Numbered from the whole stretch's first letter, positions 12,541 to 63,095 are shown. The stretch is DNA of 63,095 nucleotides, filler included, from Sphacelaria rigidula (GCA_964200075.2; 5 parts of 5 records of this genome joined end to end with filler, not necessarily neighbours in it); one strand, 5' to 3'. The notes: generated from the sequence alone by a model not told the origin. Made by a program: numbers and translations.

Positions 12541-12640
12541 NNNNNNNNNNNNNNNNNNNNNNNNNNNNNNNNNNNNNNNNNNNNTTAATTAATTAANNNN
12601 NNNNNNNNNNNNNNNNNNNNNNNNNNNNNNNNNNNNNNNN
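12541..12640. other. Artificial contig spacer
   Basis: N44-TTAATTAATTAA-N44 (stop codons in all six frames). Confidence 0.98.
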
Positions 12641-25180: not shown

Positions 25181-25280
25181 NNNNNNNNNNNNNNNNNNNN
25201 NNNNNNNNNNNNNNNNNNNNNNNNTTAATTAATTAANNNNNNNNNNNNNNNNNNNNNNNNNNNNNNNNNNNNNNNNNNNN
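25181..25280. other. Artificial contig spacer
   Basis: N44-TTAATTAATTAA-N44. Confidence 0.98.
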
Positions 25281-27496: not shown

Positions 27497-27501
27497 GTCA
27501 G

Positions 27502-28089
27502 TTATCGCTTTAACTTTGTATCCGGATGCAGGTCGGCTGGCGAAATGGAATTTCCCAAGGAATCCAAGTCAGCCGCACCAAGGCGAGGTTTGGATGGAGA
27601 CAGTTTCAAATCGTGCGTGCGTAGGCGAGAGAGAAATTCTCGTAGAGTGCGTATATGTGCAATAGGTGAGGCATCGAAAGCGATAGCGTCATCCAGGGAC
27701 ATGATAATATGCTCGAGGCCCTCAGTGACGCGTTGCATTAAGCGTTGAAAGCATCCCGGGGCAGTGGCGGCGCCTTGTGGCATTCGAAGCCACTCATAGA
27801 GTCCGAACGAGTTACAAAAAGCCGTAAGTGGGACTGTGTCAGGGTGTATAGCATTCTGAAAAACTCCAGAAGCGAGGTCGAAGGTGCTGAATATTTCGCC
27901 TTCGCCTAAGGAGTCGAAGACTTCATCAATGCGGGGAATTTGAAGTTTACCGACCACAGTGACGCGGTTCAACCGTTGATAATTCACGGTTATGCGTATG
28001 TTTCCATTCTTTTTGGGGACGACCACAAGGGGCGAGGCCCAAGGAAAGGAGGAATTTTGTATCAATCCCGCTGCCAAATGCGCATCCAA
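27502..28089 (-). pseudogene. Gypsy reverse transcriptase (frameshifted; YxDD reads SLDD)
   Basis: WASPLVVVPKKNGNIRITVNYQRLN, IPRIDEVFD, FSTFDLASG, YEWLRMPQG, IMSLDD. Confidence 0.93.
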
Positions 28090-31000
28090 GATGGCGTTAA
28101 CCTTCTTGGTAATGATCGGGTTTGTGCGGTATGGCCGAGAAGAAATCGGCGAGACACCGGGTTGGAGGGTAACCTCAAAGTGCAGTGTTTTGCAATCCCC
28201 AAGATCCGTCTTGGATCGGGAAAATCGGTCAAGGTACTATAGCAGGGCATCACTGAGTTCTCGGATGACTGGCGGTTCCCAGCCGGGCCCATGAAGGTCA
28301 TAGTTGATGTCGCGCGTGTGTGGCGGCAGTTGGTGCCACATGTGCAAGAAACTATTCCGAGAATCTGGTGATAATCGTTGAAGCACTTCAGCAGGAGAAT
28401 CGGAATTTGAATGGCCAGGATCCACGGTGTGGACCTGGGGTGGAGTCGCGGAGGCGAGGTCGAAATACGGTTTATCGACACAATGGACTGACTCCGCCGG
28501 AGATGTGACGTTTGGCGCGGCAGGCTCTGTCACGCACGTCTCGAGTGGGATGTGCATCAGGGGAGCAGCGGCGATTCCTAATACATCGGCGGGTTCCAAG
28601 TTAGCATGACCCGTAAGAGGTAGGAGTTGTTGTCCCGCCGACACAAAATGTTCTATGTCGGCTGGTGCGCCAAGACGGGGTAACATTTCGGCGAAATAAT
28701 GACCTGTAAGTGCTGGCATGCCATTTCGGCGAAGTAGTGCAACTTCTAGAAGTTGGGGATCGTCGGAGAGTGTAATACCAACGCTACCGTTGTGTCATAG
28801 GTGGTAAGCAGCTCCGGTTGCTTGAGGATTCTTCTGGTAAGCCAGGGCGCCGTGGAGAGTACCAAAGTGTTCGAGGTTGAATTCTCCACGAGGCGGGGAA
28901 TGTGGGGCTAGTGGTGGAAGCGTGCGGTAGGTGCGTTTATTAAACCACATATAGCTATATCTGCCCAATAGTATGGCGTGGTGCATTGTGCTGTCGGGGA
29001 CAATGTATCCCCAGACTGCGAGGCTAGCAGATCGAGTGGTGTTGTGAAATAATTATACACTGAGACGTACGAATTTACGTGTCGTCAGTGGTGCGGCAGA
29101 ATCACCGAAACCGCCCCACACTCGAGGTTTGGTGGTGGTTTCGCAAGCTGCAGTAGCAGCGTCAATTTGTTTCATGCGTTTCCGTGTTGATTCTCGAATA
29201 AATGTTTGCGGGCTGCCGCTGTCCAACAAGGATACGCATTTCGTAGGCGTGATAGCGTTTGGACCGGAATGGATCGCAACGCGTGTAGTGAAAGTGGTCG
29301 GTTCTACAGACACCATACCGAAGACAAGATCCGGATCGTGTTCCGGCAAGGTAAATTGGTCATGATCAGCGGGGCTGACAGTAAACACGCATGGCGGATG
29401 ATCTGCCGGTGGGTCAGGTGCCTCACCAGAGAACGGGGTGGACGGTATACTACTTCCAGGTGTGGCACGGTCAGAGTCATCATTGGCGATTTCGTAAATG
29501 ATCGTCTTTGGTTGACAGGGATCACCGTCCAAGGGGGATCCAGAATGTGCGGGGCTGGAATCGTCGATTGAGAAAGTAGAGCCGTCAGGATTATTTGATT
29601 TTGTTTCTTCCGGGATACTTGATAGAGCTGTCGAACTCAAAGTCGTCGCATTTTTGAGAGATAGAGGTTGAAAATTTCCGCTCGAAAGAGGTGTACGTGA
29701 TTATGCTCGCGCGACCTTGGGGGCATGCTTACGGGGCTTTCTCTTTCGCCGTGACAAAGGTCGGGGGACTTTCAAAACATGCTGGGATGAAACCACAATT
29801 GCGTCCAGTTGCGTGGATGGGGTCAGCATCAGGGCATGACGGAGCGAAACTTGTGGGCTGCTTTCCGTAGGCAAGCTTGGCTGTTGGGTCATTGCCGAAG
29901 ATATGTTGGGGCGGTTGTTATTAAAACCGGTCGAAGGTAGGTCCGGGCGTGTTGAAAATCGCGGGGAAGGAGCTCGATCCAACTGATTGGGAATTACATG
30001 ATCCGATGTGATCAAGTTCAAATCAGCAACACTTGGGTCAGCTGAAAAAGGCTTGCTACTACCTGTGCGTGCGGTCGCTGAGGGAAGCCTTTACCTCAGG
30101 GACTGGCGGTTGATCCTTCCACACCCCAGACTTGTACTCGGCAGTGAAGGACCAAGTTCAAAGCCGGGTGTAGGTCTGAGTCGCGGGGTGACACAACTGT
30201 TACGCGGTGTGTGGAGGGGTGAAGACGGGGGTCGATATGAACGGCCGTCAGTTGCGCTCCTGCATAGTGCCGGGGGAGCCAGGCCAACAATCTGAGTCGT
30301 AGGCTCTGCGGGCTGAGTTGAAATGTGTGTGGAGGTTGGAGACGGGGGTCCATTTGAACGGCCGTCAGTTACGCTCCTGGATAGTGCCGGGGGAGTCGGG
30401 CTAGCAATCTTAGTCACAGACTCCTTGGGCTATGTTGAGAAAGTCTTCGCCCATGCTGTCGGCGGCGTGGAAGACCGAAGAACGCCGGCGTCGGCACGTC
30501 ATGGATCTGGGCGATCCATAGTGAAGGTACCAGGGTTTCTGGTGTTGGGATTCGAGCTTTGTGTCGGTCCCGTCCGCTGGTGTCTATCAGCGGGACATTT
30601 GTTGTCGCGAGGATTTTGAACGTTCTGGCGAGGGCTTGGGTGATTGTTGTTTTGTCGGCAACCGCGATTAGAGCTTTTGTTGCCACATTGTTTTAATTAT
30701 TACGGTAATTTCGATTAGGTGGGCGATAGTCGCGCATGCGTTTTTGCCATCGGTGCCACGCGTGTTCATTGTCCTGCAATTCAGGGTTCATGAGATCAAA
30801 GGCATTGACGTATAGACTGTCGCAGTCGCGCATACTGTGGCCTTGAACACTACAGTTGACGTAACTGTTGGCATGACTGCTGAAGGCATTGCGTCTAGCG
30901 GAAGAAGAAAGAAGCGGGTTCCACAAATGGGGATCATCTGTAATGAATACCGTTGTTGAAGTCAAATGAACATCATCCCAAGTTTCCTCGGAAAACGGCC

Positions 31001-31900
31001 AACCATCAAAACTTACGCTGAATGCATCTCTGGTACTCTGAACATGCATAACTGAACCGGCGATCGAATCGGGGGTCCATGAAGCGCGAGACGAGCTCGA
31101 ATTCCTGCCGCGAGCCCCTTAGGCATGAGCGGAGGGCACAACCGTAGGTGGTGAACGCACAGACGTAGAAAGGTTTCCACGTATGGAGGGCGTTAGATTA
31201 CCCTCTTAGTGAAAGCAGACCACATAGTATCAACAGAGGCGTGAGGCACCTCGCGATGCGCCGAGACACCCGGAAACAACGACGGCACCAGAGCCGGATA
31301 TTATTGAGCGACGCTATTGCGAAGTAAGTTTGACACATTGCATCGCTCGGTCCGTTTTGGCGTCCGACACCCTTAGTACCAGAAACCAAAAGCTTATTTT
31401 CGCGGAGATAACCCGCGAAGGGGACATCCGATGCGACAGCAAAAGAACTCAGCCTCTGGATGGCGCTGGCTCGGTCGCTGTTGTCAAAATAGCCAATCAA
31501 ACGCCTCTCCAAATCAGAGAGCAATACCGGGCCTGTCTTCCCCTTGGCACGGTCCGGATCAATTTCGGCGAGGAAGCCGTCGAGGATCTGTGTTGATGAA
31601 GTAGCGATGTCGGGCGAGCGGCGGCTGATGGATCGATGCAATACTTTGTGCAGGGGAGTCTGCCAGCCCTCTACCCAATCGGAATCTTCGAAACGTTGTG
31701 TGCCAGTGGCATCCGCCAAGTGAAGGATGCTACAAACAGTGCAGCGAATGGACGTGATGAGGGCAGAAGTAAACTGGCCCGAATCTTCGTTATCCGCAGC
31801 AGGCATGGGTTTAATGTGCCAGAGCTATTTCACATCCATCTGAATGTAGTGTCTCTGTATTGCAGCTGCTCGGGCAGACTCGGCTCTATCGGATGCTATC

Positions 31901-34900
31901 CTTGGTGGCAGTAAGATATCACGACGTGCAGGTCTGCTCGTAGACCCTGGATTCCGTAACGCGTTGTTATTGCGTTTGCTACTGTCATTAGTCAGGATTG
32001 TTTGGTCGCGGCCAGGACCCACCTCGATCAGTCACCGGCTTGCCTTGGTCTACTCTGAGCCATCACTACGCTCTGCCCCTATGGCTGCGCTGCGGCTGGA
32101 CTGAGTAAGAGAGCTGCTTGTAGATATAACATGTTGCTATGAAGCACATGAGTTCCTAACCACCAGTCTGCACATGGATGAACCTTTGTTCATGATGGAT
32201 AGCTATATAGGTCGCACGGTGTGCCCACGTGAGAGCTTGGTTAGCTGGAACCAATGGTATCCCGACTAATGCCGAGATAGCCCCCCCACAAAAAGTGCAC
32301 CGGAGACCGGTCGACAAACCGGCTGCGATCCCACTACTGGGATCGTTTGCAGCAATTTCGCCCACGCGGGAGGCGTGTAGCAATCCACAATCAGCTATAA
32401 TGCCCAAATGAGTCGCGTCGTGCAGCACCAAAACAGCTCTAACGGCATTTATGACCATCGCCTTCGTGCACGTTTTTGGCCGGTTCGGGGGGGCTATCTC
32501 GGCAGCAGTCTCTCCTGGTACTCGTACTGAGAGACCTCAGCCAGTGCATTAGCTACACCATCATTATGACAATTGGCGTCGATAAACGGACCCTGTTCTG
32601 CTTGGTTAGGAGGCCTTTGTGTTGCTTGGCGTTGTGTTTTTCTGCTCAAGCTGTAGTCAGTAACTCGCCCTAATTTTCTGCGTTTTTTTACTTGTATTCA
32701 GTGAGGCGCCCCTGTGCTATTCTGATTGTCATGGGCGTCAGCTTACTCTGGGTTCGGTTGCATTGAACAACAGTGGTAAAGACTGCTGTACGTTGCCCCA
32801 CTTCGCGTACTAATGATACGTATCTGCCCGCCGTTGGTACACTGCTTGTAGCTGCTAAGCGATTTGCGGTAGCTGCCCTAGGTCCTGTTCCCGCTTGTTT
32901 ACATCCGCGTAAGTGCCATGGTGACGCACTTGGTTAGTTCCCTGACTACGCGTCGATCTAGCCGGAACTGCGTTCTCGGTCCGCCTTGTGCATGTAGCTA
33001 ACCGTCACTCTGTCTCACCACAGTGTGTTCACTCTGCTGTCGAACAGTGTATCGCACGCGCCACTGTGCCTCGTGCAAACTGTGTGCTCGCCGACCACTA
33101 CTACATCGATGGTGGTTGATAGTTGGTTTCGACGGCTCATGCTGTAGTAGCATATGGTTGATTTGCCTTGTACCGAATTAAAACGCCCCTCCTCTCCATG
33201 TACCTCGGCGAGCACCCCAGATATTAGCAGATGCGCAACCCCCCCCTTCCCCCCCTTCCCCCCCGGGCGCCCTTTTGTGTGTTGCGGTACCCCATCGCGC
33301 TGCATGGCTTTAAGGTGTGGGAAGCTGAACCGTCAGTCGCGGAAACAACAACTTCCCCCTGTGACAGCACACGAATGTAATACCGGACGTTGCGTTGTTG
33401 ACGTCGGCCCAATTGATTCGAGTCTACCGCAGTTAATTTCCGCCATTCTGGGACAACGCCGCCTGAGTGATTTCGTTGCCATGGTGTATGTTTTTGTTTC
33501 CCGTCAATGGTGCTACAAGTCGAGCCTCTTTTCAGGACTCGCCTGATAATTGACGAATTGTGGTTTCAGCGACAAAATTTGCCTTCGGATGTAAGCCCAC
33601 TAGGTTTTTGTGACCACCCTCTCGATGTTTACTCACACCACTTCAGGCAGGCCTGATTGACCTTTTCCTATATTTACAGATGACTCCCGTCGGGAGTGCT
33701 GTGGTTTTAGCGGCAAAATTTACCCTCGGATGTAAGCCCATACGTTTTGCGTGACCACCCCACGATGTTAGATATCACTTCAGTCTGGCCCAATGGAGCT
33801 TTTCTTTGTCGTATCGGATGGTCCCCGCCCCTTGTCGAGGAGAGAGTAGTGGCCCCGTAACCGCGCAGGGTTTTCAAGCGCACCGTGTCCCCCTTCATCA
33901 GTGCAAAGTATAATATTTTGCTGTACTATGGAAATAATACTCGAGCTCGAACATTTTGCATTGTAGAAGAGACGCCTTCGGACACAGCCCCCGTGCCCGT
34001 TCCATATGCCGCTGCCCGGGCTGCTTCCCAGCACCCTCCCCCCCCCCCCCCCCCCCCACACCCCAACCGACCCCACCCCCCCCCGCCCCCCCGACCGCCC
34101 ACCACCCACGCACTCCGACCAACCGCCACANNNNNNNNNNCCCGGGCTGCTTCCCAGCCCCCGCCCCCCCCCGATCTGATCAGATATCAGATCGTAGCCC
34201 CCCAACATCGGTTGTATCGTAGGCGTATACTTGAGGTACTACGACACACCGTCTGCATCCCTCGGCGATGCGGCGAGCGATGAGCTCACCTTGGCGGATT
34301 TCAGAACCCCTCAATCCGATTTGGTCAGATTTCAGATCGTAGCCCCCCTCACCTTGGCGGAGTTGGATCCTCCAATCTGATCTGGTCAGATATCAGACCA
34401 TAGCTCCCCCCCCTCCTTTTCCCTTTGCTGCGTTGTAGCCCCCCACTGGTTTTGGTGCCGTGTCCCTTTGTGCTGAGTTCGCGCCTTCTTGGTGACTGCG
34501 TTTATAGTAGCCGTGGTCACATTTCTTGTCGCTGTCGTATTTCTGTCCGTGTCTCCTGAGCATCCAGTGCTTTTTGTTTTGTTTGTCTTCGAGGTTTTTT
34601 ACGCGATGAGAGGACTGTCGATGTAGCCCAGCCTCCCGCATGTTGAGAATTTTGATGACTTGATTTCCGGATGTATTTGTTGTTGTCACTGCTCAGCCCC
34701 CTGCCGCCAGCCAAGAGAGCTCGCCGCACGGGTTCTACCTCACATCGTCTTGTTGCACGGGTCCTTGGTTACACTGTGTGCTGCTAATTATACCGCCCTT
34801 GTAGGCCGTATTTATGCCCGACGACCGTTTTAGGTCGAGGTGAGTTACTGCATTTCGACAATTTATCTGGACGTGTTCGTTTGTTTGTTCTACCCCTATC

Positions 34901-37819: not shown

Positions 37820-37919
37820 NNNNNNNNNNNNNNNNNNNNNNNNNNNNNNNNNNNNNNNNNNNNTTAATTAATTAANNNNNNNNNNNNNNNNNNNNNNNNN
37901 NNNNNNNNNNNNNNNNNNN
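37820..37919. other. Artificial contig spacer
   Basis: N44-TTAATTAATTAA-N44. Confidence 0.98.
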
Positions 37920-38288
37920 GACTCGAAATTTCGAGCAACAAATGGCCCAAAATACCCCCCCCCTATCGTAGAATGACTCTAAGACTGAGCGAGAGTCTAC
38001 CCGTCGCGGAAGTGCTGGTCCATGTCGCGATATCAAATTATCAGGCATGTCCTGGGGAAAGATGATTGGAGTGTGACGAGAACAGAAGAAAACAAGGATA
38101 GAGTACCTCGCAGATGCCCAGGGTATTGTAGAACCCACGACAACCGCGGTCATTTGTGTTGCCCCCCAACACGTTCGTCAGCGAACGGACAGACGGGAAT
38201 CAAACTCTGTTCCTTTATACTTCCTTTTATCCCTCCTGTTCACTTCACCCGGTCTCCGACGTGCCAATATGCGTTTGATTCCGCACAG

Positions 38289-41200
38289 GAGCGGGCGCTG
38301 ACAGCTGCCGACTACGCGCTGTTTGCGGCGTGCGGCGCTTTCGGGTGCACTACCACGCACATGGGGGTCGTACCTCTGGACGTTGTCAAAACCCGGCTCC
38401 AGACGGAGCCGGGAAAGTACGAGGGTCTGGCGCAAGGGGTCACCACAATCGCTAGAGATGTGAGCTAGCAACAATGACGATATAGTTACGCCGTCTTGTA
38501 TCGAGCAGGGCCTTTTATTTCTTGTTTCGTGCTGGAGAATGATCAATGGCTTTGGATTTCGAGGGTTGCGCCCGCGTTTCTCTTGCCCGTGGATCGTCGT
38601 AGCGGTGGTAAGACTGCAGTAGATCGTGCCCGGACTTGCATTGGAAGAACGCGGGTATCATAACCTCACATCCAACAAATTGCTTGGCTTTAGCAAGGCC
38701 AGATGTGTCTTATTGAGAACTGATGGCATTGGGGCAACGCGAGATTCACGCTTGACTTACGACATGCCGGAGTGGAATGCAACGCACTCTGCTCTTGCTG
38801 TGCATCCACACATTTGTTTCTACCACACAAGTGATCAAAGTTGCATATCTTCGTCTTTCAAGGGAAGCTCAATATGGTTCAAATCCAGTGAGCTTTGACG
38901 GTAAATAAGAAGGTGTGACCACCGTTCTCCCTGCCCGTCCCCTTCCCGTCCCGTTTCCGCCCCCCCCCCCCTCCCAAAAATAATGTACAGGAGGGTTGGC
39001 AGATGCTGATGCAGGGGATGGGCCCAACCCTTGTTGGGTACAGTTGGTACGGAGTCACTGTCTACCCTGGTTACGAACTTTTCAAGCGTCTTTATATCGG
39101 GCTCGCGGGACCCTTGAACGCCGCGCTTTTTCGCGTGCCGCTTGTGTTGGCGGCGGGGGCAACGGCCACTGTCTTTGCGTGCATCGGGGTCTGTCCAGCC
39201 GAGGTACAGTGTGTAAGATCACGAGGAATGTAGCTACGCTTCTTGTGTATTATCGATGGGTAGGTGGCGTGTACGATCTTCTTGGCCGTGATGGGTGCCA
39301 GCTGTCATCTCCCACAGCGTCAGCGTTTCATGGTGCGCTTGGCCGAGGGGAGGGGGGCGATTTGCAGCTTTAGTCGTTGTTATGAAGTTGCATCTCTTCC
39401 GTTCCTGGTAGTGTACTGGGTAGGTGTTGGACACTGGTAATATTCGTCGATTTAGCAGCGGCTCTTGATTCGCTCCCGGGCGCCCGAAGGCGTTCGCTGA
39501 GCGTGACGCACACGTGTACGAATATGCCCACAAGGTGGTGGCGAGCACGTTTCCTCGAGTGACGCAGTAGCTGTCTGACGGGTATCTGGATGCAAATTCA
39601 TCTCGGAACCACTATGCAGCTGACAGCGTGGCCTGAATGGTGAGCAAGAAAAAGAAATGTTGCTGACAAACAGATGGCCCGCTGAGCGCTTTAGACGGTT
39701 TCAATTGCCACGTGCGCGCAGTGGCTGTTGTAGTTGCTCTAGCGCGTACTTTTATTTACACTAAACCTAACAGCACCTTCTTGTACGCCCCGTCTGTCCG
39801 ATGCACATTGTACAGGCTGTCCGCATTCGGCAGGTGGCCGATCCGACGGTTGGGAACTTACCTAGTGCGGTGAAGCAAATTGTCCGCGAGAGCGGCTGGG
39901 GGAAGCTGTACGAAGGATTGCCGTCCATTTTGTTCCGGCAGATAAGCTTCGGCATGATGAAGTTCCTCGTCTTTGATTTCTTCACGGGTACGTCGTCATG
40001 TGTGTGTGTTTTCCTTTTTTTTTGGGGGGGGGGGGGGGGCGGGGGGGGAAGGCTACGCGATTTATGTCCAAGTCGTGCGTTTCGATCGATTGGTTTTTGT
40101 CTCTTCTGGTTGCTTGGTTTGCCTGTTTGACTTTATGTGGTACGCGTCCAGCAGCTCGTGCCTTCGTATTTCCGTGCATGCACGTCTTGCCCCTCTCAAA
40201 TTAAAGTGCTTGACTTGCTCCGACGTTGTCGAGTGTGCGTTTGTGGAGTTTGATAGTGATGCCTTTCTACTGGATATTTGAATCACCCATCACTTACTAG
40301 AGGAGCGTCTCAATCCCATCCTACTAAGTCGACTGCCCCCAACACCGTGGGTCGGAAGGTCGAGAAATACTTCGACTTGAGGAAAAATTCTGACTTCGAG
40401 TTGTCCCGGGAGACACGGATCCCTCCTACGGAAAAAAAAACTCGGAGTTTTAGGAGCAACTCTGACCACAGCTGTCGAGCAAGCGCACTGATGGGTTTGG
40501 GCACTCGACGCAGTTGATTGATCTTGATTGATTCTCGCACTTGTCATTGATCCCCAAGTGATCCAGTCGTGGCCATTCTCCACAAGATAGACGTACCCAA
40601 AATGAAGAACGAAACAAAACTGGCGACACTCGCTGAAGATGGTTGTAAAAAAGCAGAAGGTAAAACAGACAGAAACATTCGGATAAAAGAATCAAGATTC
40701 ATTGTATAGTAAAGCGTTCCTGCCTAAATGGCCAAAATAGAGGCTTTCCCGACTCAAACTGGTGAGAACACGGTGTAATTCTTAGAATCTGAAAACTAAA
40801 GCTTGAAGAATTGGGCTTGGGTGCATTTTGACTATACGCACGACGTGCATTCGTCACATGTGGTGTTTGATGAGTGGGGGAGAAGGGGGAGCATTAGCTG
40901 ACTTACCCTTCTTGCGCACCGAATGGCTGCTCCATTATCTGACCTACCCAATAACAACCGATTCTCAAAAATGGGGTTGAACACTAAGATGAGGTTCAAA
41001 TGGCATATCTAACTTCCAGGAATGAATGGTGCGAAACAGTCACACCAAGGGAAAGCATCTTCCCTCGAAAAAAAACTGGAGCAGTTATTAAGCAGGTGTG
41101 GCTAGGTGCACCGAACGAATGCGGTGTACACGCGTGTCGATGGCGATATCACCAGAGAGGGGAGGAACGGCGGAGAGGAAGCTCTTCGACGGTGTCCTTT

Positions 41201-50457: not shown

Positions 50458-50557
50458 NNNNNNNNNNNNNNNNNNNNNNNNNNNNNNNNNNNNNNNNNNN
50501 NTTAATTAATTAANNNNNNNNNNNNNNNNNNNNNNNNNNNNNNNNNNNNNNNNNNNN
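50458..50557. other. Artificial contig spacer
   Basis: N44-TTAATTAATTAA-N44. Confidence 0.98.
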
Positions 50558-52221
50558 ATTCGTCTGGTATGATACTGCAATGACCCGAAAGATATCGTAC
50601 AATATCCCGAAGGATATCTGCTACTGTAGAAATGACCAAAACACGAACAGGCGCTTCGCGCTTGGTGACTGCAAGCCCGAAGCGGCGAAAACCCTGTGAT
50701 ACTACGATAGGGAAGGGAAGGTATTTGATGCCACGAAAAACAGGAGCTCACAGGTGTCACACTTCTCAAGTACTCGCGGTGCGTTTGTATTTGGGTGAAA
50801 ACGGTATAAACTGGCATGAATGTGTGTCATTGGTGACAAACGCGTTCGAACAGATGTAGCTGCTTTCGACGATGATTTGAGATGGAAACTACTGGAAAAA
50901 ATGACCGAATCCCTCCCCCTCCTCCCCATCGTCAGATGCGAAGCCAATGATCTCATGACTGCGGTATGCACGATCGTGAGTGCAAACCCTTCCCTCATTA
51001 GAGGATGAGGCTTGAGTCCGACAGTAGTGAAACGAACCAGGGCCCAAATCACAGTCTCGTGACGGAGGGGTTGAAGAAGTCGCAGCAGTGTTTGTGCCCC
51101 ACCCCTCGTACCGCCTGTGTAGTGCTATAACGTCGAGACGTTTTGCCTGGATGCTGTACATGTGAGTACATGTGAGTCGAGTCACTCGTGAAACGGGACA
51201 ACAGCACCATGATGGGACTTATTTTCGAGAAAAACATTGCATTGCTCGCAGTATACTTTCACCTCAGCTGCACCCCTCAGCGATAAGAATGCCTACTGAC
51301 GCAAGACGATCTCATCACGGGTAGCTTTGAAACCGCAGTAGCCCCTTTCACCGCACATCAACAACCTTGTAGTTCTAATATATCTGAAGGTTAAGACGAA
51401 AACAAGAAATAACGCTAGGCTACGTACGATCGAGCAGCAAGCAGTCTCGAGATGGAATCACTGGCAGTCTCCTGCCGCATGGCTAAGCTAGCTAAGCTAC
51501 GAATAGGAACACTGTACAGTACTGTACAACAACAACACAAAGTACGAGAAAGCTAACCGAAAAACAAAAACATGGACGATTTGAACGGACTATTCCGTAG
51601 TCATGGTGTGGATCCGACGCAACCCCAAAGCTTCTGCTATTATGAACACGATGAGAAGCATGTCAGGCGAACTCTCTTATAATATTGAAAATGTACAGTT
51701 TTTCTAGCGAAATCCCCCCAAAACGGACAAATTTAACCAGCTAAAAAAAGCCCACAATACCATCTGAACAACTCACTCGATAGTCATGGCCACGATTACA
51801 ACTGGAAATGTCCCGAAGAAGGAAGGGCCTATTAATACTGTGCCGCACTGTGCCGGGGCAACTGATTACCTTCCCCACCCCGTAGCAAGGTGTTCAGCAC
51901 GCCAATAGTGACCAGGGAGCTAATGCATCCTATACATTACGTCAAGCAATGTAATATCCCACAATATACTCAAGTGATCACCATGACCATAATAGCTCCT
52001 CAAGTGCTAAACAAACCATTAGTGGCGCAGTAGCAACACACTCCACACTGCCGCCAAGTGATGAACTCCCTTTCCCACTACATTCTCGGTATCTAAGGTG
52101 CCATCGAGCACATCACATATCCCAGGATTAAATGTACCTACCCCATGCATACATACCTGTGTACCCCACTTGCAACGCACGCTCAAAAACGCACTATTTT
52201 CAAGCATCTAGTCCGTGGTGG

Positions 52222-55200
52222 TTACAACGAGCCTAAGCTTCTCCTCGCCACATGCGCGAAACTAGGTGGGGTCTTCTTCGACGAAGACACCATGTTAGCC
52301 TCTACATCACCAGCATTACCAACACCCCTCTTGTGCTTGGCGGCCCCCGAACCGCCGCTTGCGTTGCTGGCGTGATTTTGACGCGTGTCAGATAGCAGTG
52401 CCGTCACTGAAGTGGCAGTTATTGTTTCGCCGTGACTGGCCAAGTCGAGAGCCGCCACAGCGAGAAGAGGTTTCGGATACTGACCCTCGCCCTCCCGGTG
52501 GGCTGCCTGTACAAGGTAAGGAACAGTTTATCGGGCCCCAAAACGCAAAAGCAGCGTTGAGGGGAGGGGGAGGGTGTATGTGCTCATTGAACCAACCATG
52601 TTTCAACAAACTTTGTCAAGGCTGGGATACTCAAAATCAAATGACAAATTCCACAGGTACACAAGTTGGGTACAACGGAACTTTCGCAAGTGCGGATTCT
52701 CGCTTCTCGATGAAATCAAAATAGAAGAGGAAAAAAAATAAAGGCCGAGAGGGGTGGTATTCCCCGTCACCAGTCAAGATACGGATATGTAGGCGCCGCA
52801 GCCCCGCTTACGGGACGAGCGATGAAACTTGATTTCGTCCGACACTCGTGAAAGAAGCTGACGGTGGTTAGCATCGACTACGCACGTGCTTGTTTTGCAA
52901 TCACGGACGATGCGTTTTCGGGAAAACGGACCTTGGGACGGCATGCGGAGAACGGGGGGGCTTTAGTGTCGCAGTTATCTCAATGTGCACATGTGGCGCC
53001 ACGTATCCCACAATGAGGACGCCCATGTATTCACGAAATCCTAGGGTAGTGTACGAGCGAACACTGTCTACCCTCGATAGGCGCCGCTTGATAGAACCTC
53101 ACATTTCGCCTTTGAGAAGCGGATGTTCAAGAATTAGTCGCGAAACAAGCTTTTGCCCTTCACCCAAATCGCCTGCTGACACAATCTCCTCTTCTTACCC
53201 CCTGATTCTCCGAAACTTTGCAGCAGCGCACCTCTATCTCGCGGGCAACACACGGAGCTCCCGCGGCACGGAACCATATCCTCGATCGGCCACGGTGAAT
53301 CCCAAGCCCCGATTCCTTGGGTTTGCCTGATCTTCCCGTGTCGGCGTATCCCTCGCTTAGGTGGTGGTACGACCAGCCGTGTTTATCTGTCGAACCTCCC
53401 TCACCATCCTTGACGAAATCCCAATCGTGCAGCCACACAAGACCCGGGGCTCTGCAACGTCACCATTTGACACCATGTGGTACGAAATGGATGGGGGGCA
53501 GGAGGGCGGGGGGCGAAATAGACGTGGGGTGTCAAGGTATATGGCCAAGGGGTTAACACAGGCGATTCTTGGATCATCTCACAAATCAAATTTACTTTAT
53601 TCAACAGAAAAGAGATAATAAGCGTGACTCTCGAAAGGCAGAATAGTCACGAGTAACAGTCCTACAAGCGACAGAAGGAACATGTCCAACGTGTATCCAT
53701 CGAAGTTTAAATCCGCCATCCATACTTGTGAGCCTTTCAACGCAAGTGTCAGGCAAACCTTGGCACCGCGAATACCGTAACACCACTTACGGTGGGGGTT
53801 TTGCGTTATTTGGCCGTCCTGCACCCAGCCCGGGAACCCTTGTCCATCTGGGAGGACCGCAGAAATGGGAGCAAAAGGACAAGAAATGCGCAGATGTAGG
53901 TTGCGTGAGAGCATTCATCATAACAGAGCCGCTCGTGGTCAATCCACTCGGATTTGGGTCAGACGCGTGCTCTGGTACTTGGGGTGTTTGCTTGAGTCGG
54001 CTCACTCACTTGTCTAGCACAGGAACGCGCTGCTCTTGTTGACGATGTCTCACTAACCAGATACCTGCATCTACGTGGCCGTGCAGCATCCGCCTCATGG
54101 CTCCCAGCCTTACCTACAGAAGCATCCAAGGGAACAGAGAGCGAAGGTCAAGGGATGAAGATCAAGGCCGAGTTCGGTTTCGAACACATACGACTGTCGC
54201 ACAGGAAGTGGGAGTGGTAGTGGTAGTGGTAGTGGTAGTGCTAGTGGTAGTGGTCATGAGATAGAAGCACCGCACGTAACCAAGCAGAAACACTTGCGCA
54301 GGGGCTCGAGAGCGTGAAAACATGAAATAGGAAAGAAAAAAACAAGGAAAGGAATACAAGCAAGTGTTTGACTCATTAGGCGTTTCGAGAGGGAGCGGTA
54401 GATCTGGGAAAACGCGAGTCACATGAAGCGAACATCCTGGTGTCGTCGGAGCGACATTCTCCACCTAAACATTTGCCCCCCCACCACCAGCGGGGTACTT
54501 GTAGAAATGAAGGAAACATGGTCGACATCGACATCGACATCAACTTCGCGAATCTTTGTGTGACCGACTACAACACACTTACAGGTTACACGTCTCGGAA
54601 GGAAGAAATTTTTCCATGAAAACGTTTTTGCAGAACCCAAACAGAATCTCAACTTGTCCATCATTTTTGCCACCCGGATAAATCTCCCCGAAAGTTTCCA
54701 CAGTTCCCCCACATTACTTTGAGAACTCGTTGCTACGCTCGGCTTAGACCTATGTTCGCATCTACCCAAATTGTCTCACCCCCCTGTCAGGCACCAGTCC
54801 CTCTTCAATCAGGCTGCGGTACTTGGGCTGAACATCTCCAAATGTAAGGAAGCCGCATTTTTTATTGCCGCAGGACGCGCCGTGTTGCCGTGTTGGATTC
54901 ACCAGTGGACCCGGCCGCGGAATATTCGCGGATAAAGCACGCGCAGGAGCATACACATATGCTAGTATCAGTTCAAAGTTCTGAATACAGATTAGCACAA
55001 CAAGGAACACCCGCTGCGTGGAGTGCGTTACCGTGGTTGACCAAACATTTGTTTCGAATTTCGAATGGGATCAACTCGGGGTGGGATGGGGGAACCCGAG
55101 GCTTACTGGTGGGTCGCTTGGCGGGTCGATTCACGAAACATCAGATGAGGACAACAATGATATCGGCAGTCAGTCCATTTGATGAGGCAATGTACGCCAC

Positions 55201-58200
55201 TGCAATACTTTGTGTATTGGTTATCGTACGTGGTTGCTCCTCCAGTAGAGATCCCAAATTCATTGCGGTCTCATTGGGAAAATGCATTACATGATCGATG
55301 CACTGCTTCTCCACCCGCCCACCTCCGCGCTGTTTCGGCGAAGTGGTTCCCCCTGAAATCTCCAAAACGCTTCCGAAGTGATGCAGCCAGGTGCCCCGTA
55401 CTTGCCACGAAACCGCAGCCATGCAGGCATGCTCCCCTTCGGATGATCGAGCACGACGGGCAACGGCTGCCAGACCTTCCCGTCTCCATTGCATATGTCG
55501 TCTCCCAGACCCCCAAAGCGACGCCATCTGAGCAACGACACAGAAATAGCACGCCGTTGTCGGGTTGCCATCATAACCGTCCCTTGCGGGGTTCCGATTA
55601 TGTCCAAGCCTCCAGAACGTGAGGTCGAGCTGCTCTACATACAACCAAGACAATACACAAAAGGGGGTCAGAACCATCACCATCATCATGCTGGAGGAGA
55701 TCGTGACGCTGTACGCCGCCCTTGACTCCTGGTTTTAAAATACCGCACACTCCATCGCGTCAAGGTAAAATGTTATCTGTACACGTGTTGATATTGCACG
55801 CCACCTCTCGTCCGAAGAAGTACATCCTGCACTGCATTCTCACCTCACCTTTTGGCCATATGGTAACTGGCATGCCCATCCCTGGCCGGGTAAACCACCG
55901 CTCGAGTACCAACACGGCTCGCGCCAGTGCCAATAACACCCGCCTCCCTGTCGTTTTGTCCGACAGATAGCTCACTATTCTTCTCTACCGAGCCGGCCCT
56001 AGCTAGCGGATCTTTAGTTTGTGGATCATTCTCCAGCTCCAGGAATTCGCGTTGGGAGGCAGGCACCTCGGGAGCCACACCGGGATGTATTTTCGCTTCT
56101 AATTCCAGCACCTGGTCAAGAGCGCGGTAAAAACAAGCTAGGGTCAATATCTAAACTGAAACGATCACATTAGACAAAGGATGTACATCATGGGTACACT
56201 GCATCAGCTATTGGTCGACTCACAGCGAGGGGAGTGACATATATAATGGGATCATTTTCAATGATCCATGGAAATCAAAAACGTCAGGAAGGATTCGCAC
56301 TGGCCCATGTATGAAGTATGCTTCATAGAGGACACCGCTGCTCCAAAATCCGTACTTTTGCCCCAGAACCGTCGCAGAGGGGCGGGAGGACGGAAGGGGG
56401 GAAGGGGCTACGTATGCTACGATGCTGATAGTGATCATGTCCATGTCCTACCTGTATTCCTACATAAATTCGGCTTTGCTTCTGGGCTCCATCTTCCTCT
56501 CTCTTCTAGCTTCTCTCTTGTTATCCGCTCTCCATCATTTTCTTTTTTTTTCTCTTTCCCTCTTTAGTTCAATACTGTAGAAGTGTTTGTGTCTAGCTCC
56601 TGTAGATTTCGTGGGTGACGACTACTGCTCAAACCGTGTAGAATGGTTTCCAAATAGCTTTCACGGCATTTTTCGGGGCAGGTTTTCGCACGGCCTTCTC
56701 AGCTGAGGTCATGCTACACGGGGTGACCATTTCTTGTTCCCTGTTTTTCCTTGTCATCACCTTCGTTATTTTCATGGGACCAGTTCTTCGAGTTCTTTTT
56801 TTCCTACTTTATGTCTGGCCTCTTGATGTTTCGCTTGTCTCTCGTTTTCGTTCAGTTTACTCCATTTGTCCTATATTCATTTTTTTTCCTTCAGGAAGTG
56901 CTTCGGTTTTGTTTACCTTGCGTACGTCTATTTTGTGGATGATGACCAATGGTAACCAGTTAGCTCGGTTAGATCCATGACTACCTCGAGGACCAGTCAA
57001 TGTGCAACAATCAATGTATCAAATCAGATCAAATCACATCACACATTAGTGCTCTATTGTCATAGTTCCTCTGTCCCACAAGTAAAGGTACCTAAATTTG
57101 TACGGGCCCTTCACGATGTCCGATCGTTTTTTTTTTTAATGAACTCTACGGTGTTTTTGGAGTTAAGAAAATGTGTTTAAAATTTGCAGCTCGTGCTTGA
57201 ACCATGCCGCCGAACGGCTGCGAAAAAAGTTGGTCTGTCCAAAAACGGCCATTTTTCGCTCGTTTTCTCAGGAAAGCATGATAGACCCGGGAGCACGAAA
57301 AATCGCTAAAAATGGGCCAGAAGATGTAAAAATCGCGAAACGACCATTGATTTTGGACATGTCCGTGATATTAACCTACGTACGCCCCATCCAACATTTT
57401 GTCAGCATGTAATTGATAGTGCTCGAGACGTGAAAACGTCCAAACATTGTCAATGATGGGGGGAAAATGGATCAAAAAGGGTCAAAATCGGGTATATTGT
57501 GATCAATTTTTAGTACAGAAATATAGCTTCGTTTTTTTTTTCCCCGACTAGCTTCGTCTGCGCTTTGCCTTTCTAACGAACCCAATCACAACATCGTCGC
57601 CACCACTGGCATACCTAAATAATATATCGCCGTTAGGTACCTTTACTTATGGGACAGAGGAAGTACAGAAAGGGCAGTTGCCACGCCGGCGGGGGGGTAA
57701 TTTGCTAGAACTGCTGCACGTACTCATGTACCATGGTGATCGCACTGTACATAGACAATACACGAGCTTGCCGAGCAGACATGGTGCGGAAGGCACTCAA
57801 CTAGAATGAGGATGCTTAGCTTCCCCATCAAAATATTGGGAGGCTGTGACTTGTGTTAGAACATCCACGAGTCCCCTTGGTACATAGTGCACTACACCTT
57901 GATCTTCTACGCGGGTGATCGTTGCCAAACCACATCCCTTCTCCCACGTGTATCATGACAAAAGTCAGTGTACTGTCGCTGGTTGGCTACTGCGAGCATT
58001 TACGTGGAACCTGGAACACATTCCGACGCCGTATCATGAAGAGTATGGTCAGGGTTAGGGGCGGCGAACCTCTTGCACCAATTTTCTTCCAAGATGTTTC
58101 CATCATTGCACGTGTCATCACATTATTCGACATGGGCTATTATTCCCAAGACCGCGTGCTTGCTCTCTGCATCTTGCTAGGGTTCGAGATGATGATTCGG

Positions 58201-61200
58201 CGAGATACTGCTACTTGTACATCGGACAACGTTTGTGTCAGCCTCGCCTGTCGATAGAAGGCCTCCGATGGGATCCATTTGCCCTCTCCCGTGCTGTGTG
58301 CGGCGAAGAATACCTCGAGGACCCTGTCACCACCAACGAACGGGCATTAAATCCAGACCCGACGTCTAGCAATCGTTTTCATCATGCCGTTTCTTGTGAA
58401 CGAAAAAAAGTCAAAATGACCACTGAAAGCCCTCGTTGGGTAAATCGTTCATCGAAAGGATTCTGCAGTGTCCACTCTCCGCCGCCGAGCAATGCGATGC
58501 TTTCTTCTGCATGACCACAAGAACCACACGGAGAGCATGGGCAACAGTCACCGATCTGTAACAAATGCCGATTCTCCGATTCGTTTTTTTTTTCCGAGAG
58601 TCATACTATAGTTTTGTTGCCAACACTCGACTGCGGTATACAACAAGATACCAAGTAGGGGTTTTTTCCAGCTCAACAAAACGACGGGGATATGAATAAA
58701 AAGCATCAGACAACATGCAGTCACTCATATAATCGGTGCATAATGTATAGTGTTTCACTTGAAAAAACCAACGCCCCAATACCCCTTAATTTCGAGTACA
58801 GTACTCACGTCATGCTTAGCGCATCCACTCGAACGGTCACGTGTTCCAGGTCCCCAGTGTGCGCTCCAACAGTGGTGCCGGGCACGGCGAAGGTTGTTCC
58901 GTTGTACGCATACAGAAAGGCGTACTTCAACTCGTACACGGAGCCCACACCTATTTCAATGATCGATTTGCACGTGCAATAATACTGGATTATTTTTTTT
59001 CAAATCAACCAACTCGCTTGGGTTCTGAAGCTCTCCCGAAATCATGTGCGAATAGTGTTTCTTCATCTTCATTTCTTCCCTTCTTCTCGGGTCATGCGCA
59101 AGCCCTCACATCGGTAGAGGGCGAGAGACCAAGCGCCGGCCGCAACCAAAGGCTTGCAGTTGTTTTGCTTTTGCTCATATCTCCTTCGCAGGCGTGCCCA
59201 GTATCTGATGCCACCGCTCTGAAAATGACATGTACGCGTTGTGTTGTGAAAAGCTCAGGCCCTCGGGGGTAGAAACAACTTGAGAAGTGTGTAATTAATC
59301 TATCCGCATTTTTAGAAACTTGTCAATTTGGTGGCGAAGTCGAAGAACAAAACTCCGGCCTCGCCCTGCTCAACATTTCGGCACTTGCCTTTGGCACAAC
59401 ATCCTACACGCCAACAACCAAACAACCAAGAAACGACGAGAAAGGCGACGACGACCACGACCACGCGAAGCCTGAGTTACACGGCAAAGGCAGCATCTAG
59501 CAGTGCTGCGAACCCCATCCAGCCACGGCTGACAGTATTGTCGGGGGCACGAGCCACGAGCAACCACCCTACGTACACAAACCGGTCATCGAGGATTCTG
59601 CTGCTACGATACATCTCTCCGCATATAGATTCACTCGTCGTTAACTTCAATCATGACCGCCCCGCAAAAACAAATAGCTGCTGCCCTGAAACCGTGCTGG
59701 AAGTCACGTCCATCGGTGACAAGTACAGACAGGCATACATGGGACTGTACTGTATGTGTTCAAGTGGTGTACTCCAACCGGTACGGGATACGGACCGCAC
59801 TGGCTGCACGCTCTTATTTGCATTCATGGTTGGTTTGACTCAAAGCGTCTTTCTCCACAACAACGACCAGTCAGCAACACGCGCTTTCCGTCGTTCGTGA
59901 GCCCCAGGTTCCAAAGGGTTACAGCTGCAATTTTCCGGACGGGTTTGTTTTCCCTGTCTGCCCATATCTCCGTCGCTTGTAGGATATGATGTAGGTGGGT
60001 TTCTGGAAAATGATCCGAGGGGGGATTCTAGGCTATTCAATACTACAGTGTGATTTGCATTGCACTACATGCTATACCGGTACAAAGACGGGGGCGTTGC
60101 GTTACCCACTCGAATGGAAAGCCTACAGTACGTTAAATCAAGACGCGTCCTAATGATACTGTAAACAACATTTTTCTGCGCAGTACGGAGTACTCGAACT
60201 GTTGACCTGCACTCACCCCCTCGTCTGAGAAAAGGAGCCATCATGGAGTCATCTAGACGCTGAGCAAATGCGTAGCACGGCACCGTCGATAGGTCCCCTT
60301 TCTCTCCATCCCACAAGCAATCGTGTGGCTCCAACCTGCACAGCAATCCGGGTTTACAAGATCATCTCCAATTCACCGACAGAAATCACCGACCATTGCG
60401 GCAATTTTGCCTGTTGTATTCATTTTGTCGATCGCACGAGCATGCCGATTATTGTTGTTGTTTGTTCATATCAAGAACCTTTCCGATATCTACGCAGTAC
60501 TTCTCACCTCCATGTTGGGCATACGATGCGGACGCCTTCCGTGGTCACAGGCTAACTACCAAAAATCAGGTATAAGAGAGTAAAAAAAATAGAATTAGAC
60601 CCAGAAAAGGACACAAACGCGATAGAAAAAATAAAAATGATGGTAGCCCCTTAAGATCCAGTGCCGCAAGCGACCATTCGGACTCAATGACACGGCCATT
60701 CTGTCAGTGATCGCCTTACTTTCTACGCCTTTCCCTCCTTGATAGTAGCCCGTCGTCTCAAGATCAACCCATCCTTTCCCCCCGCTCATGCCTGACAATT
60801 ACAACTACGTATCGCGTATTGAATCAGCTCTCCCGGACCGTGCCAAAGTTCCTCGGATTTTCCTTTGCTACTAACATCGTCACATTTTCAACGGCGGGAA
60901 TCGGATATTCCACAGAGAAAAAAACACTTCTACCCGGATTCGAACCCTCGCCCTTCCGACCTAACAGACGCAAGGTGCACCGATTACATCACGGGGCTTT
61001 GGTTTGTAAAATGAACACTGTGTCGACAGCGTCAAAGAGTGTATATATACGCACACATGCATACATCACGTCCGAGGCGGGACATGCAGAACACCTGGAA
61101 TAGAGCATATGCTACGCCCGATGTAAACTAGATGAAGGCCAAAACGATGCTCATCCTACCTAAACCGGAAAATATCGCCGGCTTTCTTTTGCTCATCCAA

Positions 61201-61593
61201 TAACACCCCCGTGGTCCAGCCTTGCGTTCCCGCAGGCGTCGGTACCACGCTCCAGCCTGGAGGGATCCGCCAGCCCTTCCTTTTGCCGCACAGTCCACAT
61301 ACGCTATCCCCGCTGATGGCGCTTACTTTTGTCTTGCCTTGCGGGAGGGTGCCGTCCGCGCCATGTCCTGTCGTGCATTGAGAGGGAAGCTATCGTGAGG
61401 GAACCGAATCGTGGAAGAGAACCAAATGTATGGAGAGGGAACCAACAGACCACTCTTGACTCACCGATATCACCGGGAAGGGTCGACTTACAAAGCACAA
61501 GCTCCAGGTGGAATGTGTCGGCAAAACTGAAAGGAGGTTACACGACAAGCTCCACGTTCGGTGCCGTAAATGGGGTGTGAACCAATAAGCAAT

Positions 61594-61625
<32 letters not shown>

Positions 61626-62095
61626 AAACACCCAACACCCAACAACGGAGCCCACCCCAAAATGTTCAACACGCTCCGTGCCTTCAATTTTCAAAATGCC
61701 GCAAAGATGACGGGACAAATTGACCTTTTGGAGGGCCACGAAAAATATTCTCAGCATCATACTTGACTCTCCATTGGCGAAAATCCACGAATTCACGCCC
61801 CCTGCTTCTTCACCTCCGACGGGAGCATCGTCATCCCCCACCCTTACACTGCCAGCGATTTCGTCGACTTGCTCTGGATCATCATCCACTGACGCAACGT
61901 CCACCTCCAAGGCAGGGGTACAAGGGTCATCGTCAAGTTCGCTGCCGGTTCCATTATGAAGGTTGCGGTTACGCCTGAGATTCCTCAGTCTTTCAAGCTC
62001 GTGTCGTGGGATTTCTTTTCTCAGCAGCAATGACGAAGATATGAAGCTCTCCGCCGACACTGGGAAGTGCCTTTCCGATGCGTCGAAGTGGAGCA
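52222..62095 (-). CDS. Multi-exon Vps62-domain protein with a C-terminal DysF-like domain; first exon not located
   Basis: Exons: 61725-62095, 61492-61526, 61160-61303, 60217-60335, 58809-58950, 58248-58323, 55849-56111, 55323-55527, (55032-55101 and 54780-54961 tentative), 54010-54113, 53791-53847, 53199-53451, 52222-52506. Vps62 motifs: VLHFDASERHFP, YAFLYAYNG, GAHTGDLEHVTVR, VFFAAH..GEGKW, VVYPARDGHASY, PAWLRFRGKYG. Confidence 0.85.
56600..57040 (+). mobile_element. 3' end of a LINE/SINE-like retroposon with an (AATCA)n tail
   Basis: Ends ..CAATGTGCAACAATCAATGTATCAAATCAGATCAAATCA. Related tails at 14265-14325(+), 3150-3230(-) and 40514-40575(-). Left boundary approximate. Confidence 0.55.
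57065..57663. mobile_element. 599-bp Stowaway/Tc1-mariner-type MITE with TA TSD
   Basis: TA-GTTCCTCTGTCCCACAAGTAAAGGTACCTAA ... TTAGGTACCTTTACTTATGGGACAGAGGAAG-TA. Confidence 0.9.
60820..60998 (-). mobile_element. tRNA-derived SINE-like repeat
   Basis: Minus strand GCCCCGTGATGTAATCGG...GAGGGTTCGAATCC (A and B boxes). Confidence 0.55.
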
Positions 62096-62518
62096 CTGGA
62101 CAAAATGAATGCACCAGACGTGTCTGCGGTTTTCAGGCCGGACGGGGAAAGGAGAAAATCAACCCTAGAATTAACCATGATAGCCGAATACACACCTGTA
62201 GCCTGTATTTGATTCAAAAAGGATGGAATAATCCACGACGTGATAGGTGCTACAGAACCATTCACCATACCACTCCACCCCACCCATCCTGGTAGTGCAT
62301 GTTCACGTCATCAGCTTCGCTTCGGACTACATCAAGATTCAGCGTGAAAAATAGCAGCAGGTGATGTAGAGAAGCATTCGAAGGTGCTTCGGATAGGACA
62401 CGTGCCTTAGAGTACCCGATTCGTGACTCCCCGATACTCTAGGGCACGCAAGGTATCGTCTGCAGAAATACTGTGAGAATCCTGGTATGCCCGAAATATC
62501 CTCAAGATGAAATAGCCA

Positions 62519-62896
62519 GTGTGTGTGTGTGTTGTTGTCTTGTGTTGTCGTCCCATCTATTCTGGACGCCGGTCTACACCTCTCGGTATATGTGGGCGCA
62601 TCAGCCGGGGTCACACAGGAGGAAGATCAACACAAGAGTTTTTATTTTATTTTTTGTTTGTTTTTGGGATTCTACCTTCCTTCCGCGGTGCTTGCCTTTA
62701 CTTTTTATCGCGAGAGGGGTTCAGCAGTCCCTTTCCCTCGTTGACCGTTGAGTCGACTTTTGTGTACCCACGACATGTCGCTCTCCACTGTTTGGCATGG
62801 TGTGAGAAAAAATCTCAGATCGCTCCGAGATTTGAACCCACAACCCAACCGTCAGGAGGTCTCGAGGTTACCAACTGAGCCACCGGGGCGACCGGC
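62519..62896 (-). mobile_element. tRNA-derived SINE with a (CA)n tail
   Basis: Head GCCGGTCGCCCCGGTGGCTCAGTTGG...GGGTTCAAATC (box A and box B), ending in a CA-rich tail. Confidence 0.75.
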
Positions 62897-63095
62897 ATCG
62901 ACACAGAGTACCCACGAGTATGTTGTACCTTGCTTTACCATAATCACTATTGAAAGAGTTCGCCCCCTTCAGCCTTCAGATCGCTACACGCACTTGGACA
63001 TCAGTAGGGCAGGTGTTGGGAGAGAGGGGGGGCGTACTCATTTGTTGCTTGCCTTAGTCATTTGACCATTGACCACGCATCCCTTTCGAGACGGA

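Follow-up and report, generated by a model that had tools for sequence, protein, structure and literature searches.

Gene structure and transcript

The window, i.e., the whole stretch of Sphacelaria rigidula DNA analyzed in this study (63,095 nucleotides), is composed of five unlinked contigs of approximately 12.5 kb each, which are joined by N-flanked spacers and are not neighbors. The gene described here is on the minus strand of the last contig (G000:C3654, window positions 50558 to 63095). Its DysF-like exon is 100% identical to the NCBI protein CAM9380550.1 of S. rigidula. All 10 matches of the Ectocarpus orthologue to the genome by tblastn are on this contig, and the gene therefore looks single-copy, to judge from the sequence of a fragmented assembly. 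The coding model has 12 exons, in which all acceptors are AG and the donor is GT at ten junctions and GC at one, and its 678 codons are open to the stop codon at 52224 to 52222. The features are as follows.

61814..62123, minus strand: first in-window coding exon, amino acids 1 to 103, with the core start and an acidic insertion; contig pieces 61813 to 62125 in 4/4 runs, AG/GT sites; matches residues 11 to 52 of Ectocarpus P0003 by tblastn; true 5' exon upstream
61160..61367, minus strand: core exon, amino acids 104 to 172; contig piece 61158 to 61366; matches P0003 residues 96 to 152
60217..60335, minus strand: core exon, amino acids 173 to 212; placed by the 337-nt gap and the frame; matches P0003 residues 146 to 187
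58809..58950, minus strand: exon for amino acids 213 to 259, with YNG and H-x-x-D-x-E-H; PF06101 profile 358 to 401, 3st1 alignment
58248..58323, minus strand: exon for amino acids 260 to 285, with the AAH motif and a GC donor, which the gap length fits
55849..56111, minus strand: exon for amino acids 286 to 372, a low-complexity insertion and then GHASY; contig pieces and joint in 4/4 runs
55323..55527, minus strand: exon for amino acids 373 to 441, core end (RRF, GDD, WLRFRGKYG); both joints in 4/4 runs
54780..54827, minus strand: 48-nt linker exon, amino acids 442 to 457; joint 54827/55323 in 4/4 runs
54010..54113, minus strand: exon for amino acids 458 to 491, first DysF-like strand; placed by the 209-nt gap and the frame; in P0001
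53791..53847, minus strand: exon for amino acids 492 to 510, DysF loop; placed by the 209-nt gap and the frame; in P0001
53232..53451, minus strand: exon for amino acids 511 to 584, with W..W..TD..GW.Y and the strand, rich in R, that closes the DysF-like domain; contig pieces 53231 to 53451 in 3/4 runs as listed; fold matches
52222..52506, minus strand: last coding stretch, amino acids 585 to 678, with a predicted helical bundle, low-complexity tail, and stop
50776..52221, minus strand: 3' UTR of at least 1446 nt; contigs extend to 50776 in 3/4 runs

The Vps62 and DysF-like motifs that the original prediction had placed in one spliced frame are all found on the minus strand in this model. Those of the core are at 58861 to 58841 (HTGDLEH), 55877 to 55863 (GHASY), and 55421 to 55395 (WLRFRGKYG), and those of the DysF-like part are at 54041 to 54027 (QQEQR), 53435 to 53421 (WLHDW), 53390 to 53367 (TDKHGWSY), and 53288 to 53268 (RSRIWFR).

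Eight runs contain the stretch, with word shares of 27 to 31% in four, 92 to 97% in three, and 42% in one; the first two ranges are as expected for spliced RNA and genomic DNA, respectively. Contigs from four of the eight runs (X1, X2, X3, and X8; two studies) were aligned. The runs are labeled "RNA?" or "?" and none is recorded as RNA, and their transcript status is taken from the exact skipping of GT-AG introns. The joints 55527/55849 and 54827/55323, which have CT..AC ends, are present in all four runs and both studies. The last core exon (55323 to 55527) and the DysF exon, whose linkage in RNA had been proposed as a check, are together on a single contig in two of the four runs (X2 record 5 and X3 record 10). 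The latter contig, of 3702 nt, spans 62125 to 50776, and its offsets for four exon starts, as well as its overall length, are reproduced by the 12-exon model. The boundaries of five exons (60335 to 60217, 58950 to 58809, 58323 to 58248, 54113 to 54010, and 53847 to 53791), which are not listed individually, were placed from the exact gaps of 337 and 209 nt, the open frame, the bin depth, and the Ectocarpus alignment.

Core and DysF-like domain are thus encoded by one expressed gene on one transcript, and the fusion is real, as originally proposed: contigs span both parts, and transcripts continue past 54961 to 50776. That there are two separate genes, or that the DysF pattern is a chance look-alike, is very improbable. 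Such a reading could draw on the DysF E-values, which are not significant, and on the low-depth contigs that run across the intron separating the core from DysF (55322 to 54828; depth 5 to 11 versus 34 to 44 for spliced contigs in X1 to X3), in which read-through would hit a stop at 55287 and yield a core without DysF. These contigs may be unspliced RNA, and against the reading stand the single contigs spanning both parts in two of four runs and the full-length fused proteins in at least five named genera.

Several boundaries differ from those given earlier. The first exon begins at 62123 (contig pieces 61813 to 62125) instead of 62095, and the two linker exons proposed within 54780 to 55101 give way to the single exon 54827 to 54780; the earlier linker keeps the frame but has 180 nt extra, which are absent from the contigs. 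The start of the DysF exon at 53451 is correct, whereas its end at 53199, which is also the donor of the NCBI model, is not the donor used, and the contigs end the exon at 53232. P0001, the model at NCBI, was not accepted as the precise product, since it begins within exon 3 and has two donors unused by contigs. NCBI's 27-nt longer donor for exon 58248..58323 was likewise rejected; it misfits the gap length, and the extra 9 residues are absent from Ectocarpus. The contigs hold at least 217 to 323 nt more on the 5' side of the model, sequence that is unplaced in the window, and several candidate in-frame donors lie upstream (e.g., after 62271).

The Vps62 core and its predicted fold

The Pfam Vps62 model PF06101 (cut-off 22.1) scores 30 bits for P0001 and 32.7 for Ectocarpus P0003. 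The Vps62 domain of the original prediction thus passes the cut-off, but only the second, NLP-like half of the model is matched (about 358 to 401 in the window's protein). The N-terminal beta-tripod half is unmatched, and the fused members align only at profile positions 238 to 419. Pfam searches with eight single ORFs gave weak matches only, including Vps62 at an E of 0.044; weak Pfam and PDB matches to beta-galactosidase, CHIP, U_exon, and DUF6618 were judged to be chance. Zaitseva et al. reportedly split the Vps62 Pfam model in 2019. The available portions of PMC8624791, PMC7613979, and PMC10683392 describe this model as having a beta-tripod mixed in. Two other loci of the same genome match PF06101 119 to 171, a stretch which, from what PMC8624791 and PMC7613979 give in the parts at hand, would be that of the tripod.

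The core is predicted to have the beta-sandwich fold of the NLP/Nep1-type cytolysins. Residues 8 to 314 of the modeled Chrysoparadoxa orthologue match eight NLP entries (Z = 12.6 to 13.2, rmsd = 3.3 to 3.6, 177 to 187 aligned residues, 12 to 17% identity), and the next row that is neither NLP nor DysF has a Z of 3.8. In a search of 48,161 chains that did not depend on Foldseek, two NLPs are likewise in the first places, and the window's own NCBI protein, which is without the first 200 residues, matches NLP at a Z of 4.8 to 5.9. The top PDB entry for the 103-row family profile is 3st1 (MpNEP2; E = 0.22), with the H-x-x-D-x-E of the heptapeptide strand, AH, and SH in register; on this alignment, the H-x-x-D-x-E-H motif of exon 58809..58950 corresponds to the heptapeptide strand of NLPs. 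NPP1 matches are found in 3 of the 103 rows and are weak (best E = 0.015), and one family member, P0166, is over both the Vps62 and the NPP1 cut-offs.

Compared with the NLP cytolysins (PF05630; NLPPya 5NNW, MpNEP2 3ST1, and HaNLP3 6QBE), the algal protein has the beta-sandwich fold in common, and the heptapeptide strand aligns at its H, D, and E, as do two other histidines. It differs in its low identity, in large insertions, in the added DysF, and in the exact GHRHDWE, which is replaced by H-T-G-D-L-E-H; NPP1 (PF05630) has no match in the fused members. A hydropathy scan found no hydrophobic N-terminus in seven of eight relatives, including those of Ectocarpus, Chrysoparadoxa, and Vaucheria; the Sphacelaria N-terminus is outside the model, in which the highest 19-residue hydropathy is 1.46, and in one member, P0016, a hydrophobic stretch is present at the N-terminus. 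NLP membership of the core was rejected on the heptapeptide, the NPP1 score, and the signal peptide. It is extremely improbable that the protein is a genuine NLP-type cytolysin, whether one that the alga secretes or one that came from an oomycete or fungus: fold and partial heptapeptide are shared, but the algal members have no signal peptide and low identity to NLPs, Pfam assigns Vps62 and not NPP1, and the single intron-rich gene is nested among Vps62 proteins in a tree that was built without NLPs. A viral origin was also considered and rejected; the viral fold library gave three strong matches (one of them a Megaviridae Vps protein), which by length cover the core only, and the gene is intron-rich.

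Polar residues at ten positions (N, four H, two D, E, Y, and R) are kept in 64 to 71 of 72 non-fused rows, a conservation inflated by the profile that found these rows, which contains the motifs, and all 11 fused rows have them as well. The near-invariant His/Asp/Glu cluster sits at the position of the NLP metal crevice. In NLPPya, four acidic residues bind Mg and the crevice binds the sugars of GIPC (PMC12513423, in the part available). Two of these four ligands have acidic counterparts in the algal protein, and the other two positions, one aligned and one inferred, are non-acidic across the family. The Chrysoparadoxa paralogue P0019 has lost both three of the conserved polar residues and the DysF, and other family members carry accessory modules, i.e., a ricin-B lectin, and PLAT and choline-binding repeats in 1 of 103 each.

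It is possible, if rather doubtful, that the core is a metal-dependent enzyme, phosphodiesterase- or lipase-like and acting on lipid head groups, which the DysF brings to its substrate. The conserved polar set is a typical active-site pattern, and the binding modules of the relatives and the joint loss in P0019 would fit. On the other hand, the conservation is inflated as stated above, no enzyme fold was matched in the structure searches, and the available text of PMC12513423 presents the structural relatives, the NLPs, as proteins that bind lipids and form pores and not as enzymes.

The trafficking adaptor that was first suggested rested on the Vps62 label, and it loses that footing in that the matched half is predicted to fold like NLP cytolysins and has an active-site-like cluster of residues. 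A related proposal, which follows the Vps62 name, is unlikely; it gives the DysF-like part a scaffold role, structural or protein-binding, and makes the whole protein an adaptor in sorting. In brown algae the closing strand of the DysF departs from the consensus, ferlin DysF domains are without the lipid site (PMC10476172, consulted in excerpt), and the helical tail resembles UBA-like bundles, all of which would suit a scaffold; however, helical-bundle Z-scores this low carry little weight, the literature searched holds no mechanism for yeast Vps62, and yeast Vps62 behaves as an ER-retrieved protein of the secretory pathway, as the accessible part of PMC4298680 has it, unlike the signal-less algal protein.

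The DysF-like domain and the helical tail

The AlphaFold2 model of the window's protein (NCBI protein, pLDDT 71) has DysF matches to TECPR1, dysferlin, and myoferlin at Z = 5.8 to 6.0, and that of the Chrysoparadoxa orthologue (pLDDT 81) matches the DysF of 8P5P, 4CAH, and ferlins at Z = 5.3 to 6.6. These Z-scores are below 8, the range in which the tool warns of a common arrangement, and the support is moderate. The alignments (8P5P, 4CAH, 2K2O, and ferlins) cover 80 to 95 residues, i.e., the whole domain, in which a loop wraps around two long antiparallel strands. An independent model from the Atlas gave TM values of 0.53 to 0.62 in 8 of 10 rows, seven of which are DysF/Pex24p clusters; the partners in these clusters include VASt, VPS13, and tectonin repeats, and Vps62 is not among them. 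The Atlas feature score for DysF, 0.76, is under the Atlas bar.

At the sequence level, phmmer with the window's protein found the TECPR1 DysF in the correct register (E = 3.2), and a six-sequence domain profile has DysF proteins (dysferlin and myoferlin) in places 1 to 4 of 5 in the PDB (best E = 0.052, 4CAH), neither E-value being significant. The full-length six-sequence profile gave no DysF match among PDB sequences. The Pfam DysF models matched none of the single ORFs, P0001, 30 proteins, or 6 domain stretches; PF06398 (Pex23/Pex24) matched none of the same 30 proteins and 6 stretches, nor anything across the alga's own genome, where the control likewise matched nowhere. Two tryptophans and two arginines, the Trp/Arg stacking residues, are invariant in six of six aligned members, and the alignments place the domain in register with dysferlin and TECPR1. 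The proteins of Chrysoparadoxa and Vaucheria have the full consensus TD..GW.YA...RR.W.R, the textbook DysF pattern, and the closing strand in brown algae has diverged from it. Three of the four stacking tryptophans of TECPR1 align and the fourth is Leu in Sphacelaria, in the register against the available part of PMC10476172. The pattern W..W..TD..GW.Y occurs once in the window versus 0 in 100 triplet shuffles, a weak control for a pattern written post hoc.

These separate lines are each moderate and mutually consistent, and the C-terminal domain is very probably homologous to DysF. The DysF-like C-terminus of the original prediction is accordingly borne out by fold (Z of about 6) and not by Pfam, which makes no DysF call in any member searched. 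On the predicted models, the pairing is a DysF architecture that Pfam cannot see.

The models of the window's protein and the orthologue have three modules only, predicted as an NLP-type beta-sandwich core, a DysF finger, and a small helical tail; Pfam reports PF06101 alone for full-length members. The linker exon (amino acids 442 to 457) forms a helix between core and DysF that is conserved in the orthologues. The tail of the window's protein resembles UBA-like bundles at a Z of up to 5.9, and a UBA identity was rejected, since helical-bundle Z-scores that low mean little.

Distribution of the domain pair and its possible function

The same domain pair was sought in other proteomes and found. 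Ectocarpus species have the full protein (659 and 661 amino acids), which aligns through core, linker, DysF, and tail and starts about 14 residues ahead of the first core motif. Accessions of the Ectocarpus and Chrysoparadoxa proteins are CAM9852321.1 and CAM9400717.1, respectively. A profile search of 1.84 billion representatives gave 548 matches at an E of 0.001, the best 150 of which are listed, and a later search gave 23; among the matches listed, fused proteins are those of Scytosiphon promiscuus, Chrysoparadoxa australica, Vaucheria litorea, and two further proteins rich in K, N, and I. The partial proteins of Choristocarpus and Phaeothamnion contain the core only. The range is that of the best 150 of 548 matches, and absence from diatoms or oomycetes cannot be read from the word-based searches, which are insensitive. 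The earlier label of lineage-specific holds only for brown algae taken together with their xanthophyte and chrysoparadoxophyte relatives, and the two unplaced proteins are also fused.

Among 181 proteins, 77 have both core motifs and a length of 240 amino acids or more, and 13 of the 77 match a DysF profile, a test that is circular for the six of them from which the profile was built. In a FastTree tree of 72 rows, from which near-copies and some partials were dropped and in which no NLP was included, eight fused rows, two partials, and the DysF-less Chrysoparadoxa paralogue form one branch (local support 95). This is compatible with a single fusion event, which may have taken place, and the architecture is conserved across brown algae and their relatives.

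Among known systems, PF06101/IPR009291 proteins have the cut-off and the core motifs in common with the Sphacelaria protein, which is without their beta-tripod half and has a C-terminal DysF (13 of 77 core proteins, on one branch). The N-terminal DysF of TECPR1 (8P5P) has the same fold (Z = 6.0) and three of the four stacking tryptophans, and TECPR1 is likewise soluble; the algal protein is without its beta-propellers, PH domain, and second DysF, and appears to have no tryptophan at the lipid-inserting tip positions in the register as read. The Pex23/Pex30 family and the ferlins share the DysF fold, whereas the algal protein is without transmembrane segments, C2 domains, and a PF06398 match. 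Green-plant VPS13M likewise combines a DysF with the "Vps62" Pfam label in a single chain; in that protein, a giant lipid bridge, the label refers to beta-tripods, and in the algae it refers to the NLP-fold half of a protein of approximately 480 to 690 amino acids (PMC7613979 and PMC10683392, both in part). The architecture described as unrecognised is therefore not new as a pair of labels; the Vps62-DysF pairing itself is not described in the full-text literature searched, which includes few subscription papers. Papers there that mention both names are yeast screens, to judge by their titles, and the DysF string is also part of "dysfunction." The available part of PMC13159263 names the resemblance between a Vps62 peptide and GHRHDWE as a cause of mis-called effectors and makes no claim on fold.

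Our preferred reading, which we hold tentatively, is that the product is a soluble cytosolic two-module protein of lipid surfaces, in which the DysF docks and the NLP-fold crevice reads a polar lipid head group. The DysF finger would dock on the membrane via basic and hydrophobic residues at its tip. In the available parts of the sources, the DysF tip of TECPR1 binds sphingomyelin (PMC10476172), and that of Pex30 binds phosphatidic acid (PMC12101078). Since tryptophan is absent at the sphingomyelin-binding position of TECPR1, the target of the algal DysF would most likely be an anionic lipid. The His/Asp/Glu crevice of the core would hold a divalent cation and grip the polar head group of a lipid, much as NLPs bind the sugars of inositol phosphoceramides, and the two contacts together would act as a coincidence detector. 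The protein could in this way be drawn to membrane damage or to contact sites, at which a lipid that is otherwise concealed becomes exposed to the cytosol. A candidate for the exposed lipid is ceramide phosphoinositol, which is present in the lipidome of a brown alga (PMC10532667, in the part available). Several points weigh against this sensor reading, i.e., the DysF Z below 8, the absence of a Pfam DysF match, the crevice differing in its acidic ligands, the N-terminus of P0016, and the lower NLP match (Z of 4.8 to 5.9) of the window's own protein, whose model is short of 200 N-terminal residues.

More speculative, and rather unlikely, is an extension in which the Vps62 core is the cell's own widespread NLP fold, a metal-centered reader or hydrolase of head groups of the inositol-phosphoceramide type, from which the secreted NLP toxins were derived or with which they are co-ancestral; the DysF fusion in brown algae and relatives would then have produced a cytosolic sensor that, like TECPR1, responds to sphingolipids exposed where membranes are damaged.

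Known parts are thus found in a new, transcribed, and conserved pairing, the NLP link of which was partly anticipated in print and the function of which we infer. That the pairing is kept in related algae suggests a role in recognizing or processing the cell's own membrane lipids. The long unexplained Vps62 family gains a testable biochemical lead, a predicted NLP-type fold with a near-invariant, metal-site-like crevice. The question can be put to a direct test, since the protein is probably soluble, the gene looks single-copy, and orthologues exist in the genetic model Ectocarpus. Lipid sensing, if true, would connect how algae sense membrane damage with how a major toxin fold of plant pathogens arose.

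Composition of the window and PF06101 matches elsewhere

Four spacers of the form N44-TTAATTAATTAA-N44 join five unlinked contigs, and features on different pieces are therefore not neighbors. The features lying outside the fusion gene, together with the spacers and the high-copy repeats, over which contig depth summed across the aligned runs is very high, are as follows.

12541-12640, 25181-25280, 37820-37919, 50458-50557: spacers
26000-32000 (-): fragmented LTR-retrotransposon remnant
27505-28236: RVT_1 reverse transcriptase match within this remnant (E 2.6e-16)
37989-38468 (+): exon from a gene for a mitochondrial carrier (PF00153), with a possible extension to 48146
60174-60591, 62541-62896, 63026-63095: high-copy repeats

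In the Sphacelaria rigidula genome (G000), the other half of the PF06101 model (positions 119-171) is matched at two further loci, L015 (G000:C3411:7978-8094) and L016 (G000:C453:15453-15614), one of which sits within a 640-aa open frame.

Splicing and C-terminal tail of the fusion gene

The intron between the core and the DysF domain (54828-55322) is covered by low-depth contigs in all four runs, which possibly represents either an isoform or unspliced RNA; its retention would introduce a stop at 55287, and the protein would end ahead of DysF. As judged from gap length, the donor used at 58247-58246 is GC, whereas the NCBI model places a GT donor 27 nt beyond it. C-terminal to DysF is a small three-helix tail (52300-52506 and 53232-53260), for which the UBA-like structural matches are weak (Z-score up to 5.9).

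Relatives of the fusion protein

The Chrysoparadoxa paralogue P0019 (CAM9652770.1) retains the core and the linker and has lost DysF and three of the invariant site residues. In the fused member P0016/P0161 the N-terminus has a hydrophobic stretch, possibly a membrane anchor, with basic residues after it.
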